Shown piece by piece: positions 1,191-57,972 of a stretch of DNA of 64,000 nt. Numbering within the stretch: position 1 is the first letter of the stretch; each line of letters starts with the position of its first letter. Location of the stretch: contig CAJOIQ010000004.1 in the NCBI GenBank assembly GCA_905234795.1, positions 1,582 through 65,581 of the forward strand, read 5' to 3'. A model generated the notes under the pieces. The model saw nothing but the letters and a program-made list of their open reading frames with translations, searched no databases and was not told where the DNA came from. Origin of the DNA: an uncultured Bacteroidales bacterium (GTDB lineage Bacteria > Bacteroidota > Bacteroidia > Bacteroidales > UBA932). Made by a program: the position numbers and the translations under genes.

Positions 1191-2015
1191 TTAAAGGCGG
1201 CGAAGGCCGACAGATCGGCGCATGAGGGCGTCCCACCAGCGGGTGGGAAGAAGGGCATGGAGCCAAAGCAGGAAGTAGGAGCCGCTGCCGGGATGATAGC
1301 GGTGGCGGGGATGGCGGGCGCCGACAGCCTTGCCGATGGCGTGGGAAACGCAGGAGGGTTGCGCCAGGTAATGGCCGGAATAGGCCAGGTGCATCAGACG
1401 GGCTTCTTTCTGGGCCGGTGCTGCATAGGGCGTTCCCTTGCACGAGGCTTCCAGGTGATCGGCGGCAATGTGTCCCCATTCGGTATCCACGCCGCCGGGT
1501 TCGATGAGCACCACGTCTATGCCGAAAGGCTTCAGCTCGATGCGCATGGCATCGCTGAGCGCTTCCACGGAGTATTTGGACACATGGTACCAGCCGCCGA
1601 AGGGCAATACCACACGGCCAACGACCGAGCCCACGTTCACAATACGGCCGAAGCCGTGCTCCCGCATGGACGGCAGCACCAGCTGGGTAAGGCGGGCCAG
1701 GCCGAAGACATTTACTTCCAGTTGCCGCCGGGCCTCGTCCAACGGCACATTCTCGATGGCTCCGAAATAACCATAGCCAGCATTGTTCACAAGGACGTCC
1801 AGGCGGCCTTCGGCAGCAAGGATACCATCCACGCACGCCGTCATGGATTCGTCGGAAGTAACGTCCAATGAAACGGGGATGACGCCAAAAGCGCGCAGCG
1901 GTTCCATGCGTTCCACACGCCGCGCTGCGCCATAAACCTTATGTCCCTTCTTCGCCAGAAGGGTGGCGGTTTCGTAGCCGATGCCGCTGCTGGCACCTGT
2001 GACAAGGATAATCAT
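1191..2015 (-). CDS. SDR family NAD(P)-dependent oxidoreductase
   Basis: TGASSGIG Rossmann motif, NNAG motif and YxxSK catalytic motif (YHVSKY). Confidence 0.93.
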   Translation of the reverse strand: MIILVTGASSGIGYETATLLAKKGHKVYGAARRVERMEPLRAFGVIPVSLDVTSDESMTACVDGILAAEGRLDVLVNNAGYGYFGAIENVPLDEARRQLEVNVFGLARLTQLVLPSMREHGFGRIVNVGSVVGRVVLPFGGWYHVSKYSVEALSDAMRIELKPFGIDVVLIEPGGVDTEWGHIAADHLEASCKGTPYAAPAQKEARLMHLAYSGHYLAQPSCVSHAIGKAVGARHPRHRYHPGSGSYFLLWLHALLPTRWWDALMRRSVGLRRL

Positions 2016-3439
2016 CGGTTGGGCTGGTCAAGTTTGAGTTCGGGATGGCGGGCCGATGTTTGGCGGAACAGGAATGCTACCGCCACGGCGGCGATACAAA
2101 GTCCCACAAACATCAGTTCTACGGAAACGGGGCCATGGCTACTCTTGCCCAGGATTACGCCAGCCACCCATTTGAAGGACAGCAGGCCCAGGTTCTGCAC
2201 CCAGTAGATAAGGGCAAAGGTGGTTCCCAGCACTTTGTCGGGAACAATCTTGGGAACCGACGGCCACAAGGCAGCCGGAACCAGCGAATAGCCGAAGCCC
2301 AGGAACACCATGGCCAGGTAACCCCAGAAAGGCACGCCCGCAGGAGCGAATGCCAGCAGCAGATGGGCAATCAGAGCCAGTACGGCGCCAATCACCATCC
2401 AGCGTGTGCCCTTGCCGGCTTTGTCCACCAGCATGCCGAACAGCGGGGCAAAAATCACCGTGGAAAACGGCAGCATGGAAACCATCCAACCAGCCGTTTC
2501 GGCCGGGATATCAAAACGGGGTATCAAAATGGCCCCCGCAAATTTCTTAAAAGCGATGATGCTGCTGTAAAACAGCACGCACAACAATCCCAGCAGCCAG
2601 AAATTCTTATTTCCCAGCACTCCCAGCACATCCTTGAAACGGAAGGTCTCCGTTTCCTCCGGCTCAGAGGCTTCGGGCCGGTACGCTCCTTCGGAGCTAT
2701 CCCTCCCAGACAAGTCTGGGCCCCTCCCGTTCACGGAGCCACGGGCGGCTACGCCGTCCGAAGCCTCTGAGCCGGAGGAACGGTCAGCACGGTCGGCGCG
2801 GGCATCCAGGGCCACGAAGAGGGCCCAGAGGATGAGCCCCAGGGCCATGAGGCTCATGCCCACCATGGCGGGACGGGCGGTTTCGGCCAGGGAATATACG
2901 TGACCGGGGATCTGCTGCACCAGCTTGGGAGAGAGTACCAGGGCGAAGGCCGTGCCCAGACGGGCGATGGCCAGCTGGAGGCCCATGGCCAGGGCCATCG
3001 GCCCGCCGCGGAACCATTTGGCGATGCTGCGGGTAACGGCTGTTCCGGCAATCTCACTGCCCAGGCCGAAGAGCATCACGCCCACATAGGCCAGGGTGAG
3101 GGACGCCGACGAGCCGCTCAGCAGGGCCCACAGGACCATTCCGGCACCGGCGGCCATCATGGTCACGAAGAGGGTTCCGCTCACACGAACGCCCCACTTA
3201 TCCAGCAGGATGCCGCCTATCACCAGTCCACCGAAGACGCACAGCACGCTATAGCCGCTGGCATACAGGCCGTAGCCCGCCGAATCCCAGCCCAGCGCCG
3301 TGAGGGAAGGATCCTCAAACAGGTACGAGATGCTGGAGAACATGTCGTCGAAGTAGTACGATGCGAACATCGGCACTACCAAACAGGCCAGCGCTATCCA
3401 AGCCGCTGACCTGTAGAATTTCTGAGCCGGAGCCGTCAT
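2012..3439 (-). CDS. MFS transporter carrying an in-frame repeat insertion in the central loop
   Basis: About 12 hydrophobic segments; paralogous to the adjacent MFS (shared GLQ/GSEMALARLG and SLVPAALWPSVPK motifs). Confidence 0.88.
   Translation of the reverse strand: MTAPAQKFYRSAAWIALACLVVPMFASYYFDDMFSSISYLFEDPSLTALGWDSAGYGLYASGYSVLCVFGGLVIGGILLDKWGVRVSGTLFVTMMAAGAGMVLWALLSGSSASLTLAYVGVMLFGLGSEIAGTAVTRSIAKWFRGGPMALAMGLQLAIARLGTAFALVLSPKLVQQIPGHVYSLAETARPAMVGMSLMALGLILWALFVALDARADRADRSSGSEASDGVAARGSVNGRGPDLSGRDSSEGAYRPEASEPEETETFRFKDVLGVLGNKNFWLLGLLCVLFYSSIIAFKKFAGAILIPRFDIPAETAGWMVSMLPFSTVIFAPLFGMLVDKAGKGTRWMVIGAVLALIAHLLLAFAPAGVPFWGYLAMVFLGFGYSLVPAALWPSVPKIVPDKVLGTTFALIYWVQNLGLLSFKWVAGVILGKSSHGPVSVELMFVGLCIAAVAVAFLFRQTSARHPELKLDQPNR
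2654..2780. mobile_element. MITE-like palindromic element inside the MFS coding sequence (core 2665-2769, 105 bp)
   Basis: Perfect 23-bp inverted repeat ttcctccggctcagaggcttcgg / ccgaagcctctgagccggaggaa; the core matches the reverse complement of 56333-56463. Confidence 0.8.
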
Positions 3440-5062
3440 TTAGTCCTGGATGTTAGGCAGTTCCAGACCCAGGTTTTTCTTGCGGTCCACCACCTTGAGC
3501 ACCAGGCCCAGGACGAGGGCGGCTACACCCAGGCAGGCCAGCATGACCAGCGGAGCGGTGTAGTTGAACTGGGTGGGATCCGTCACGCCGGGGTTGGTCT
3601 TGTCCAGTACCTTGCCGATGAGCAGGGGGAACAGCCACAGGCCGATGTTCTGAATCCAGAAGATGAGGGCGTAGGCGCTGCCGATCACTTTGGCATCGAC
3701 CAGCTTGGGAACGGACGGCCACAGGGCGGCGGGAACCAGGGAGAAGCTGGCGCCCAGCACCAGGATGGTGGTATAGGCCACGATGACGCCGCCAATGTTA
3801 TTACCCTTGAAGGCGGGCAGCACGAAGGCGAAGGTGAGGTGGCAGGCAATGAGCAGGATGGCGCCCAGCACCAGCATGGAGGCACCTTTACCCTTGCGGT
3901 CCAGATAGTTGCCCAGAATGGGGGTGATGAGCACGGCCAGCAGCGGGAACACGGCAAAGATGGATTCGGCGCTCTGACGCATGTAACCCATGAAGCAATA
4001 GCCGATGAGGGCTGCGATGGAAATGCCCAGGAACAGGTACTGGCGGCTCTTTACCTTCTGGAAGTTGCTGGCAAAGCCGGCGGCGGCCACCACCAGCATG
4101 ATGACATACTGGACGATGGTGACGCTGGAGCTGGCCCAATAGGAATCGGCAGCAGGCTCCGTGAGGGTAAGGTTGCACTGCAGCATGTTCACCGCATACT
4201 TCTGGAACGGGAAGATGGCGCTGTAATAAAGCACGCACAGCAGAGCCACAATCCAGAAACCGCCGTCGGAGAGGATTTTGCCGATGTCGGACACCTTAAA
4301 CGGATCGTCCTTTTCTTCGGCCTCACCGGTCTGGCTGTCCAGTTTCTTATCCATGAAGAAGTACACGATGGTCATCATGAGGGCGATGCACAGGAGCACC
4401 ACGCCGAAGGCCACGCTGCGGGACACGTCCACGCTGCCGCCCAACTTGGCGAAGAAGGGGCTGAAGATCATGCAGGTGGCAACGCCCAGGCGGGCCAGGG
4501 CCATCTCGGAACCCATGGCCAGCGCCATCTCGCGGCCCTTGAACCACTTCACGATTCCGCGGCTCACCGTAATGCCGGCCATCTCACAGCCGCAGCCGAA
4601 GATCATGAAACCGCAGGCGGCGAATTTGGCCGATGCGGGCATACCCCGGTAGAACGGGGAAACGCCCAACTCGTCAAAGAGCGGAATATAATTAAGGTTG
4701 TTGTTGAACCAGGCTTCCAGGCCGCTGCCCATGAAGGATTCGCTCACGGCGAACCACTTGATAAGGGCGCCAGCCAGCATGACACCGGCCGACAGGACTG
4801 CGGTGAACCGGACCCCCATCTTGTCCAGGATGATACCGGCGAAGATGAGGAAGAACACAAACACGTTGAGGAACACCTCGGAGCCCTGCATGGTACCGAA
4901 GGCGGTGGAATCCCAGCCGCGGGTCTCCTGCATCAGGTCCTTGATGGGAGACAGGATGTCCATGAAAATGTAGGAACAGAACATGGCCAGGGCCAGCAGC
5001 AACAGGGCTGTCCAGCGCATTGCGGCCGAATCGCGGAGGGTTTTCTTTACAGAATCTGCCAT
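3440..5062 (-). CDS. MFS transporter
   Basis: Multi-TM protein with the MFS motif A-like GIILDKMGVR; its TAA abuts the ATG of the downstream paralog. Confidence 0.9.
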   Translation of the reverse strand: MADSVKKTLRDSAAMRWTALLLLALAMFCSYIFMDILSPIKDLMQETRGWDSTAFGTMQGSEVFLNVFVFFLIFAGIILDKMGVRFTAVLSAGVMLAGALIKWFAVSESFMGSGLEAWFNNNLNYIPLFDELGVSPFYRGMPASAKFAACGFMIFGCGCEMAGITVSRGIVKWFKGREMALAMGSEMALARLGVATCMIFSPFFAKLGGSVDVSRSVAFGVVLLCIALMMTIVYFFMDKKLDSQTGEAEEKDDPFKVSDIGKILSDGGFWIVALLCVLYYSAIFPFQKYAVNMLQCNLTLTEPAADSYWASSSVTIVQYVIMLVVAAAGFASNFQKVKSRQYLFLGISIAALIGYCFMGYMRQSAESIFAVFPLLAVLITPILGNYLDRKGKGASMLVLGAILLIACHLTFAFVLPAFKGNNIGGVIVAYTTILVLGASFSLVPAALWPSVPKLVDAKVIGSAYALIFWIQNIGLWLFPLLIGKVLDKTNPGVTDPTQFNYTAPLVMLACLGVAALVLGLVLKVVDRKKNLGLELPNIQD

Positions 5063-55152: not shown

Positions 55153-56331
55153 ATGGCCAACAATTCGAATCTTGGCGCCGCTAAGGCTGCCAAGAACGAC
55201 GAGTTCTACACCCAGTATGCCGATATCCAAAAAGAAGTCAATGCATACCTGGAGTACAACCCGGACACCTTCCGTGACAAGACGGTGCTTTTGCCGTGCG
55301 ACGACCCGGAATGGAGCAATTTCACCCGATTCTTTGCCCAGAACTTCGAACGCCTGGGTTTGAAACGGCTCATCAGCACTTCTTACGCCGTTGAGAGCAA
55401 GAAGTACAAGGACTACGAGCCCACCCTTTTTGAGACAGAGAGTCCCTTGTTCGACATGGACAAGACCCGCATCAAGGGCAAAATCTTCGAACTTACCCGG
55501 GACACCAACCAGAATGGCCGCATCGACATCGATGACCTCGAGTGGCATTACTTGGAGGGTGATGGTGACTTCCGCAGTCCGGAAGTGTGCGCCCTCCGCG
55601 ACCAGGCCGATATCATCGTTACCAATCCTCCGTTCTCGTTATTCAGAGAGTTCGTTGCGTGGATAATTAATTCAAATAAACAGTTTCTTATCATAGGGCA
55701 TCAAGGAAGTATTGGGTACAATGAAATCTTTCCCCTGATTCAGTTCAACAAGATGTGGTTGGGAATGGGATTCGCCGGTGGTGCCGGGCATTTTATAAGC
55801 CCTTATGAAGATCATGCTGTTGCTGGGAACCATAAAAAAGGAATGATACGAGTTTCGGGTGTAACATGGTTTACAAACATAGATCATGGTCGACGTCATC
55901 AGCCGATGATACTGATGAGCATGAAAGACAACATACGATATGGGAAGCACAAGGATCTTAAAGAAAGTGGATATCGAACATATGACAATTACGATGCTCT
56001 TGAGGTCCCGTATTCAGATGCCATTCCTTCCGACTACGAAGGGGTTATGGGTGTTCCAATCACTTATTTGGATAAGTACTGTCCGGATCAATTCGAAATC
56101 GTTGGTATTACAAAAACTAAGTTTAAATTGGCCTCCAAGATTTACCCGGAGCAGATTCAGATCAATAAAGACGGAACAAAACAAAGGGTAACAAAGCTAA
56201 ACGACGGTCCTGTACTAAAGATAAATAATCCTCCTGCTAACCAGGTGTACTATATGGTTGGGAACGAAATGTATATTCAATTATACACTCGAATTCTTAT
56301 TCGCAAAAAACATAATGACCAGGCTGAATAG
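55153..56331 (+). CDS. adenine-specific DNA methyltransferase, EcoRI family
   Basis: AKNDEFYTQY, LPCDDPEWSNF, GDGDFRS, motif IV TNPPFSLFREF, and YDNYDALEVP...MGVPITYLDKY. Confidence 0.88.
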   Translation: MANNSNLGAAKAAKNDEFYTQYADIQKEVNAYLEYNPDTFRDKTVLLPCDDPEWSNFTRFFAQNFERLGLKRLISTSYAVESKKYKDYEPTLFETESPLFDMDKTRIKGKIFELTRDTNQNGRIDIDDLEWHYLEGDGDFRSPEVCALRDQADIIVTNPPFSLFREFVAWIINSNKQFLIIGHQGSIGYNEIFPLIQFNKMWLGMGFAGGAGHFISPYEDHAVAGNHKKGMIRVSGVTWFTNIDHGRRHQPMILMSMKDNIRYGKHKDLKESGYRTYDNYDALEVPYSDAIPSDYEGVMGVPITYLDKYCPDQFEIVGITKTKFKLASKIYPEQIQINKDGTKQRVTKLNDGPVLKINNPPANQVYYMVGNEMYIQLYTRILIRKKHNDQAE

Positions 56332-56466
56332 ACAGAGGCTTCGGACGGCGTAGCCGCCCGTGGCTTCGTGAACGGGAGGGGCCCAGAGGAGATTGCCGGT
56401 CGAAGCCGGCAATGACGAATGGGAGGGATAGTCCCGCAGGGACGTACCGGCCCGAAGCCTCTGTCT
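56330..56466. mobile_element. MITE-like element (core 56333-56463) with a nested GTCATT...AATCTCC repeat
   Basis: 15-bp IR agacagaggcttcgg/ccgaagcctctgtct; inverted homolog of 2665-2769; nested unit at 56388-56416. Confidence 0.8.
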
Positions 56467-56488: not shown

Positions 56489-57661
56489 ATGATAGCACGA
56501 CTTGTAACCGACTGGAGCATCGGCGACATTTGCAAAGGATTCCAGTACAACGAATACGAAGGCAAGGGGCTGTACGGCCTGTCCGGGCGGCTGACCATTC
56601 AGCCCGAATTCCAGCGCCATTACCTTTATGCCGAGAACGGCGGCAAGAAGGAGGTAGATGTCATCCAGTCCGTGCGGAACGGCTATCCGCTGGGCCTCAT
56701 CTATTTCTCCAAGGTAGGAGAAGACCGTTATGAGGTCCTCGACGGCCAGCAGCGCATCACCTCGCTGGGCCGTTTCATCACCGAGAAATTCGCCTGGATT
56801 GATGCCGATGGCAAGCCCTGGTACTTCACTGCCTTCAATAAAGACGAGCAGGAGAAGTTCCTGAACACCAAACTGCTCATCTATGTCTGTGAAGGCACGG
56901 AGAAGGAAATCAAGGACTGGTTCCGCACCATCAACATTGTCGGCATTCCGCTCAACAATCAGGAGACGCTGAATGCCGTATATTCCGGGCCGTTTGTAAC
57001 CAAGGCCAAAGAGGAGTTCTCCAACTCCAACAACACCAACATCAACAAGTGGAACTGCTTCATTCCCGGTACCGCTAAGCGGCAGGACTATCTGGCCGCC
57101 GCGCTGGACTGGGTAAGCAAGGGAAATGTGGAAGAGTATATGGCGGCCCATCGGTACGACGATGACATCACCGAACTCAAGGCCTATTTCACTTCCGTCA
57201 TCGACTGGATTACCTCCGTTTTTGACATCACGCCGGAGAAGGAAATGTGCGGGCTCAAGTGGGGTGAGCTCTACGAGCGCTTCCATAAATCGGCCTATGA
57301 TCCGGCCGCCGTGGCCGAAAAGGTCCGGGAACTGTACGAGAGCTTCTACGTGAAAGAGAAGAGGGGCATCTACGAATACATACTGGACGGCTGCCAGAAC
57401 ACGAAACTGCTCAACGTCCGCGTGTTTGATGAGCCCACCAAAAAGGCTGTTTATGCCCAGCAGACGGCCGCTGCCAGGGAGAAGGGCGAATCCAACTGCC
57501 CGCTATGCGCCATCGGCCACGATGCCAATCACACCAAAATCTGGGACTTGAAGGATATGGACGCCGACCACGTCACCGCGTGGAGCAGGGGCGGCGCGAC
57601 GGACATCGGCAATTGCCAGATGCTTTGCAAAACCCACAACCGCGCCAAAGGTAACCGTTAG
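56489..57661 (+). CDS. DUF262 (GmrS-like) plus HNH endonuclease domain protein
   Basis: QPEFQRHY and [11 protein letters not shown]262 motifs; C-terminal CPLC...[12 protein letters not shown]...[16 protein letters not shown]. Confidence 0.88.
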
Positions 57662-57820: not shown

Positions 57821-57972
57821 AGAGAGACTCCCGCCGGGGGGCTTGTCCACCCCCGGACGAGGGCAGGGGGAGGGGCCCGCCGGAGACAAGTTCCCAAAGG
57901 GGACGAAGGAAACGGTGGGAGGGGCCGGAATGGAGCGAAGCGGAATGGAGTCCCCCCGGTGGGAGTCTCTCT
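57821..57972. repeat. 152-bp MITE-like element with 21-bp terminal inverted repeats
   Basis: agagagactcccgccgggggg (57821-57841) and ccccccggtgggagtctctct (57952-57972), one mismatch. Confidence 0.65.

Follow-up and report, generated by a model that had tools for sequence, protein, structure and literature searches.

The 64,000-nt window analysed here (G000:C4:1582-65581; G000 denotes the source metagenome-assembled genome, MAG, of 2.29 Mb in 72 contigs) carries a palindromic element inside the open reading frame (ORF) of an MFS transporter. We assign this element, with a probability of about 0.8, to a non-autonomous, hairpin-forming repeat family of Candidatus Cryptobacteroides that works like the Rickettsia palindromic elements (RPEs) and the intragenic repetitive extragenic palindromes (REPs). 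A previous sequence-only reading of the window had proposed that an RPE-type phenomenon occurs in a Bacteroidota genome. For the MFS insert this view is supported by 18 insert-free orthologs, by the multi-copy nature of the element and by in-frame copies in unrelated genes.

The insert in the MFS transporter gene

A repeat search of positions 2600-2850 recovered a sole inverted pair, with 23-nt arms that are 100% complementary and 81 nt apart (Table 1), as the sequence-only reading had described. The palindromic stretch is located wholly within the MFS ORF, which is full length and 87-92% identical to its orthologs outside the loop; the observation of an in-frame palindrome in the MFS gene is thus confirmed. 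Across the insert the coding strand reads ...DRSSGSEASDGVAARGSVNGRGPDLSGRDSSEGAYRPEASEPEETETFRF..., in the order DARADRADR-SSGSEAS-DGVAARGSVNGRGPDLSGRDSSEGAYRP-PEASEPEE-TETFRFKD. The insert comprises amino acids ~219-262, and a Kyte-Doolittle scan places it between the hydrophobic segments 6 (193-211) and 7 (271-289), i.e. in the predicted linker of transmembrane segments 6 and 7 (TM6-TM7), the central MFS loop, to which it contributes ~34-43 Ser/Gly/Glu/Arg-rich residues. The earlier claims of a central-loop peptide, of a merely short acidic linker in the adjacent paralog and of a 105-nt core all held, the last corresponding to the part common to other copies.

A six-frame search and alignment of 18 MFS orthologs from the same genus revealed a gap of ~34 amino acids between '..DAR.D..' and '..EED.FRF', where a clean gap of ~35 residues had been expected. 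The closest ortholog (G010, 92% identical outside the loop) contains a different small hairpin at this site (GTCATTCCGAGCGA..., read as SVIPSDPSVIPSEVEES). Two MAGs of one sister species (L148, JAFSPR010000065, and L149, JAEESO010000009) show the element in the same position, and its arms, TTCCTCC(A/G)GGGCAGAGGCTTCGG, are also the same; their 81-nt interior is reverse-complemented, and the loop reads DRYAPSELSLPDKSGPLPFTKPRAATP. A tree calculated from the loop-less MFS proteins had the topology ((L148,L149),(G000,G010)) with a support of 0.97. Thus, the insert dates back to the ancestor of this clade, and G010 has lost or replaced it. Site, arms and gene tree together show, at the level of these alignments, that the unit entered the TM6-TM7 linker before the split from the sister species, and the simplest history comprises a single insertion in the clade ancestor together with one or more inversions and, in G010, the loss of the element or its replacement. 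An open frame and a tolerant cytoplasmic loop would account for the persistence of the insert. We infer translation of the loop from its open frames in three assemblies and in both orientations. RNA joints of the 'skip 143/144' type, considered as candidates for empty MFS alleles, were rejected: their sides were short, and the frame would break.

It is hardly conceivable that the insert reflects MAG mis-assembly, an MFS pseudogene or an ancestral loop lost elsewhere. Elements of this family do break or fold back assemblies, with many copies at contig ends and a 124-nt 'palindrome' in L165 that runs to the contig end. Nevertheless, two other MAGs and the independent runs X1-X5 confirm both junctions of the MFS copy, the ORF has its full length and is conserved as stated above, and the loop DNA is a genome-wide repeat and therefore not an ancestral loop. 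The 92-124-nt arms in L165 had also been considered as proof of an inverted host flank (the 3′ end of a mutarotase gene); this was rejected as a fold-back artefact because the palindrome extends to the contig end. The contig folds back over at least 124 nt, with the mutarotase 3′ end duplicated in inverted form, an assembly artefact caused by the arms. Contigs often end in or just past elements, which can mimic giant palindromes and truncate MAG contigs.

Architecture of the family and its in-frame copies

A conserved asymmetric centre tops a long, nearly perfect inverted repeat. In an alignment of 150 distinct copies the family plan consists of an optional hairpin P2, ATCCCTCCCA, a variable hairpin P3, GGGCCCCTCCC, hairpin P4 in the form CCCGT-TCACGNGGCC-ACGGG, CGGC(C/T)ACG and the return strand of the outer stem P1. 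The P1 stem has a median of 15 bp if perfect and 22 bp if near-perfect, and its sequence is different in every copy: members of a subfamily have the inner ~12 nt of the arms in common, and every copy has an outer part of its own. In the MFS copy, the 11 nt beyond the 105-nt unit on either side are copy-specific yet complementary. P2 covaries among copies (GCACC..GGTGC, GTCCC..GGGAC) and is missing from minimal ones. P3 differs in sequence and length in every copy, and all four types of Watson-Crick pairs were found at its positions 4-7 among 143 copies. In P4, covariation between subfamilies is seen at the two inner pairs (GT/AC, TC/GA, CC/GG, AT/AT, GC/GC), which obey Watson-Crick pairing throughout (159 of 159 copies). 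The sole non-Watson-Crick position in P3 is an A.C on the C-rich strand, equivalent to a G.T on the G-rich strand (89 versus 1); this hints at the G-rich strand as the folding strand, although the count comes essentially from one alignment position.

The covariation of P2-P4, the G.T-compatible pairs found on the G-rich strand only and the very low predicted fold energies (about -83 kcal/mol for 127 nt) would also be expected of a structured RNA (for instance a small RNA, a self-excising RNA or a site for RNase III) that acts in the transcript and is compatible with the frame only incidentally. We consider such an RNA very improbable. A cmscan analysis of six copies on both strands gave 0 matches to Rfam covariance models at E<=1, and the copies occur in both orientations relative to their host genes (17 versus 5 in relatives, both in G000), so that no strand is consistently transcribed. 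In-gene copies keep the frame, which would be needless if they were excised, and the 89 wobble pairs have the single-position origin just mentioned. G.U is not enriched in the arms, where 2229 of 2299 positions are paired and G.T accounts for 15 of the 70 mismatches, which is no excess. Because mismatches are rare and G.T is not enriched, it appears that pairing is preserved in the DNA itself and not through selection of the RNA type.

Iterated nhmmer searches identified about 25 copies in this genome (median total length ~120 nt), seven of subfamily A, to which the MFS copy belongs, and ~16 of a sister subfamily B with the signature CCCTC-TTAYGNNNCC-GAGGG. Five copies are coding and in frame and most are intergenic, some of them directly upstream of nadE and mutL. 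In 151 genomes of the genus, the motif CCCTCCCA-N5-35-GGGYCCCTCCC occurred 741 times, in 93 genomes and with up to 39 occurrences per genome; chance is excluded because the reversed motif had 0 occurrences in the same 151 genomes. The exact core was present in 117 genome records, which assign the family to Candidatus Cryptobacteroides, among MAGs of the rumen and of the gut of ruminants, horse, chicken and human.

The sequence-only reading had likened the insert to the in-frame insertion of RPEs into proteins, and this comparison was borne out by the additional host genes. In G000, the five in-frame hosts (MFS, a YgiQ-type radical SAM protein, TruB, a family-2 glycosyltransferase, GT2, and UvrA; Table 1) were confirmed by Pfam. 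Among 143 copies from relatives, at least 17 share the reading frame of a gene that has an ortholog in G000; the hosts include genes for a UvrD-like helicase, MurB, YgiQ, MtaB, EamA and SpoU, and none of the intragenic copies examined in this 143-copy set was clearly out of frame. The MtaB copies of two genomes have opposite orientations. Insertions are found in inter-domain linkers, for example in MtaB between UPF0004 and Radical_SAM, and in SpoU between its substrate-binding domain and its methylase domain. The copies are read in either orientation and in two or more forward frames, which yields PPVHEATGGH, PSRSRGHGRP or VAARGxVNGRGP, and empty orthologs were found for the MFS, UvrA and GT2 sites. 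RPEs and intragenic REPs show this pattern as well (PMC3733652, PMC10969869). The intragenic share amounts to only about 12-20% of copies; ~80% are intergenic. A 542-aa ORF in L101 (JAGCCX010000039) contains two cores (c59, c60) 78 nt apart, both in frame, representing a tandem or nested double insertion.

Table 1. Coordinates of the MFS host gene, of the parts of its insert and of further copies. Positions without a contig prefix refer to the window.
Feature	Position	Strand	Remarks
MFS transporter, host gene	2012..3439	-	475 aa, intact ORF; Pfam PF07690 MFS_1, E 3e-27
Adjacent MFS paralog, insert-free (context)	3440..5062	-	540 aa; short acidic linker DSQTGEAEEKDDPF
P1 left arm	2654..2676	.	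reads PEASEPEE on coding strand; pairing reaches 2650 with one bulge
P1 right arm	2758..2780	.	reads SSGSEAS on coding strand; pairing reaches 2783 with one bulge
105-nt unit CAGAGG...CCTCTG	2665..2769	+	common to the other subfamily-A copies of this genome
Invertible asymmetric interior	2677..2757	+	81 nt, 27 codons; opposite in L148/L149 and in the X1, X2, X3, X5 strain
Hairpin P2	2685..2697	+	GCTCC-TTC-GGAGC
Hairpin P3	2705..2720	+	CCCAGA-CAAG-TCTGGG, flanked by the two conserved CCCTCCC tracts
Hairpin P4	2726..2745	+	CCCGT-TCACGGAGCC-ACGGG
Second subfamily-A copy	56333..56463	-	intergenic; 2 nt past the stop of ORF 55153..56331, 25 nt before ORF 56489..57661
Nested small hairpin	56392..56413	.	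22 nt, ATTGCCGG-TCGAAG-CCGGCAAT, in P3 of the second copy; separate repeat family
Subfamily-C copy	57821..57972	-	...CCCTCCCA-hairpin-GGGCCCCTCCCCC..GGGGGTGG within long arms; core type CCCCC...GGGGG
YgiQ-type radical SAM, in-frame copy, subfamily B	G000 C26:12134-12278		Pfam-confirmed
TruB, in-frame copy	G000 C9:48725-48863		Pfam-confirmed
GT2 family-2 glycosyltransferase, in-frame copy	G000 C26:3721-3863		Pfam-confirmed
UvrA, in-frame copy	G000 C8:78934-79076		Pfam-confirmed

The second subfamily-A copy of the window lies on the opposite strand between two co-directional ORFs, where an intergenic, inverted copy had been reported before. It is longer than the MFS copy, a nested hairpin taking the place of the short loop. 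The small hairpin family (GTCATTSCNGNC..GNCNGSAATC), which is nested in P3 of subfamily-A copies, is likewise found in frame and read as 'VIPSEVEES' or 'VIPSGVEES', twice in TruB of this genome (C9) and in the MFS loop of G010 (L044) and L148; as a solitary repeat it occurs in numerous relatives and also in a further family of the order (G054). The subfamily-C copy, which represents a third, related subfamily with the same architecture, is situated just beyond the restriction-modification/RAYT (REP-associated tyrosine transposase) block; TruB of G034 also has an in-frame insert of this subfamily. In L226 (G023:C2:1-787), a 305-bp tandem repeat of 2.6 units that are 95% alike contains in each unit one variant element copy (CCACCCGTTCACGAGGCCACGGGCGGCCACGG core) with its own arms.

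Inversion, maintenance and turnover at the insertion sites

In Logan contigs of the runs X1, X2, X3 and X5 (one study), the flanks of the MFS insert are ~99% alike (3 differences in 354 nt) and the joints 2653->2780 and 2654->2781 are on opposite strands, with at least 18 informative bases past the 23-nt arm. These joints are not graph artefacts, because the 31-mers of the assembler exceed the length of the arm. Run X4 has the orientation of the window with 0 mismatches over 395 nt. As judged from these contigs, two strains with 99% identical flanks differ, which shows that the 81-nt interior was inverted at least once recently. Depending on the orientation, the loop reads DGVAARGSVNGRGPDLSGRDSSEGAYRP or (D/G)RYAPSELSLPDKSGPLPFT(K/E)PRAATP, with the predicted orientation-specific peptides GSVNGR, GPDLSGR and DSSEGAYRPEASEPEETETFR versus YAPSELSLPDK and SGPLPFTEPR. 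At the UvrA site (L229, G000:C8:78700-79300), 144 nt (positions 234-377) are replaced by 87 other letters in X1, X2 and X5, with unchanged flanks. Recombination between the arms, or template-switching between them during replication, would be the most likely route of inversion, ahead of a dedicated invertase.

The 81-nt segment is located between inverted repeats within one ORF and is open in both orientations, as in an intragenic inverton. A programmed inverton, or a host-serving element in which flipping recodes linkers or the hairpin tunes translation or mRNA decay, with a recombinase recognising the centre, has to be weighed; we regard it as quite unlikely. Both orientations do occur within one species at 99% flank identity, opposite-strand joints were also seen for the YgiQ copy in the sister strain of the X runs (not cleanly resolved), and the centre is much more conserved than synonymous sites of the host. 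All five in-gene copies of G000 stay open once flipped (flip frames were computed from ungapped perfect arms), inter-domain linkers are the sites of insertion, and intragenic invertons have been documented in Bacteroides (PMC10028968). However, the hosts are unrelated housekeeping genes, with ~80% of copies outside genes, and selection for two-way openness was not apparent: 16 of 20 copies are open after the flip, which is not above chance, since two thirds of the reverse frames are open. The inverted repeats, which are the usual binding sites of invertases, are the variable part of the element. Most orthologs are without the insert, which was lost in G010, and copies at one site decay or get swapped. 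The orientations differ between runs or strains, and no mixture was shown within one sample.

The repeat-family reading also accommodates the way in which arms and centre are maintained. The MFS arms differ between G000 (GGCT/AGCC) and L148/L149 (GGGG/CCCC), each pair being complementary. At the UvrA site, G000 and G034 have differing arms that are each complementary, and the core has decayed while the 21-bp arms are still perfect. The TruB arms of G000 and G078 differ at 5 of 20 positions on both arms, with complementarity kept. Over 127 nt, the elements of G000 and L149 share 94.5% identity (79 of 81 positions in the interior), compared to 71-79% for the flanking coding DNA and 52-54% at its third codon positions (binomial P about 2e-10 against the third-position rate). 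Being conserved far above third positions, the core does not decay neutrally but is kept constant; the cause would be selection acting on the folded strand, repeated correction by means of other copies, or the two together. Paired changes would maintain the complementarity of the arms, and correction of the DNA, selection for the folded single strand, or both, would maintain the centre.

Insertion sites were found to be reused. Five close species (G000; L238-L241) each have a palindromic insert of their own in the TruB linker between ELELLDF and SSRINVADTS, namely subfamily B, B inverted, subfamily C, an unrelated hairpin cluster, and arms with the core deleted; this linker is a hotspot of insertion or replacement. 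The YgiQ site is occupied by subfamily B in G000 and by subfamily A in L027. Among 103 copies, direct repeats in the flanks were at or below chance (k=2: 3 observed versus 7.5 expected), giving no sign of target-site duplications, and no flanking insertion motif was detected. The GT2 site is empty in four relatives (IVKELQQSAPEKLHL), and this empty site holds a short quasi-palindrome (GGAAACGTTCC) resembling the outer arms GGGGAAC/GTTCCCC of G000. At UvrA, likewise, the outer right arm (CCGTCCGGC) is similar to TCCGGT, a native sequence of the G078 allele, which is empty. These two cases (n=2) suggest that outer arms may be partly host-derived, either by insertion into small palindromes or by outward extension of a palindrome through template switching.

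Spread of the family and its relation to known systems

The family probably spreads in trans via a single-stranded hairpin intermediate, possibly moved by RAYT-like Y1 (HUH) transposases, and a single-strand mechanism of the HUH type is our best guess, no more. Y1_Tnp (PF01797) genes, mostly RAYT-like ORFs of 290-380 aa, were found in 67 of the 151 genus genomes. They co-occur with the element (odds ratio 4.2, p 9e-5), and for genomes with at least 5 copies the odds ratio was 6.0 (p 1e-6).

Several points weigh against the repeat-family reading or its parts. The link to Y1 genes is one of co-occurrence only, uncorrected for phylogeny and MAG completeness; the high-copy genomes G009, G075, G123 and G173 show no Y1 match, and the only Y1 match of G000 at E<=1e-5 is on another contig (G000:C16:30581-30919). 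The inversion was seen only between strains (in Logan contigs) and between species, and the intergenic copy at 56333-56463 was not inverted but had the same orientation in both strains examined. Four metatranscriptome runs yielded just 40-60-nt conserved-MFS fragments from relatives. The high conservation of the centre could reflect a function at the host level instead of selfish maintenance.

A sample of 19 genus genomes contained just two with canonical SbcD (TIGR00619 above cut-off), namely G011 (0 copies of the element) and G015 (2 copies), and G000 gave only a sub-threshold match (C6:77362-77661, 31.7 bits versus the cut-off of 77.65). Judging from SbcCD of E. coli, the scarcity of SbcD could help to explain why long perfect palindromes are tolerated, and a link between loss of this hairpin nuclease and palindrome spread is possible. 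More tentatively, the family may represent a new type of mobile hairpin that makes protein linkers invertible, recodable cassettes. A conserved and structured single-stranded core, folded on the G-rich strand, would be moved or exchanged among sites by a Y1/RAYT-type enzyme or by template switching. Its palindromes would be taken or built from host flanks, which would give each copy arms of its own; intrastrand correction would keep these arms perfect in a mostly SbcD-less lineage, and the arms would then cause frequent inversion in housekeeping genes. We hold this extended proposal to be doubtful.

RPEs are palindromic repeats found in frame in unrelated Rickettsia genes (Ogata et al. 2000, summarised in PMC3733652 and PMC10969869), and TruB of R. 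conorii also carries one (PMC3733652). The family described here likewise consists of hairpin repeats of 100-150 nt that are in frame in loops and linkers of unrelated, apparently functional genes, with TruB as a host in both systems. It differs in its phylum, in the conserved asymmetric apex with copy-specific arms and GC-rich core, in the interior that inverts between strains, and in the low intragenic share given above. The comparison concerns the mode of action and not membership.

Intragenic REPs are GTAG/CGTC-tagged palindromic repeats tied to RAYT transposases (Di Nocera et al. 2013, PMC3733652). They resemble the family as hairpins without target-site duplications, some of them in DNA-repair or replication genes (here UvrA and UvrD). 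P2 of subfamily B begins with CGTC (CGTCGCTTCGCGAC), the tag of one REP superfamily, and subfamily A has GGTAC/CTAC instead; the co-occurring Y1-transposase genes are a possible further likeness. REPs are, however, single hairpins of 20-40 nt with a conserved stem, whereas the present unit measures 105-160 nt and combines three inner hairpins with an outer stem that is hypervariable. A structured conserved apex with copy-specific arms, compensated divergence of the arms and a recent loop-recoding inversion are all absent from the RPE and REP descriptions found.

Intragenic invertons are inverted-repeat-flanked segments inside genes of gut Bacteroidales (Chanin et al., PMC10028968). As in the MFS gene, the segment lies within one gene and its inversion recodes the protein without a stop, but these invertons are single loci, presumed to be flipped by an invertase within a population. 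In the present case a mobile family supplies variable inverted repeats, and both states are seen between strains or species only. The coding palindromes of Nematomorpha mitochondria (PMC6649704) also represent long perfect inverted repeats in translated genes with both arms coding; there, the arms encode conserved protein in an organelle genome, whereas here dispensable linker arms surround a conserved core of non-coding type. Bacterial MITEs (miniature transposable elements with inverted repeats; review PMC10969869) are likewise small, non-autonomous, multi-copy and capable of in-frame fusions. The earlier label 'MITE-like' stands insofar as the element is a small multi-copy palindromic repeat, and falls with regard to conserved terminal inverted repeats and target-site duplications, neither of which was found, nor was a related insertion sequence (IS). 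Since these hallmarks are missing, the element resembles hairpin repeats of the REP/RPE type more than IS-derived MITEs.

To our knowledge, Rickettsia is the best-known case of palindromic repeats that colonise genes in frame, and the mechanism of this colonisation was never resolved. The family provides an independent and abundant in-frame palindrome system, with hundreds of copies in no fewer than 93 species, in rumen and gut Bacteroidales. On the practical side, MAG assemblies are broken or folded back by its elements, and annotated proteins acquire low-complexity loops that look spurious. The same sites (MFS, UvrA, TruB, YgiQ) are found filled, empty, flipped, swapped or decayed, so that insertion, arm maintenance, inversion and loss can be reconstructed by comparison. 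A mobile repeat can thus create intragenic inversions that recode a protein loop, which joins two phenomena that have been described separately.

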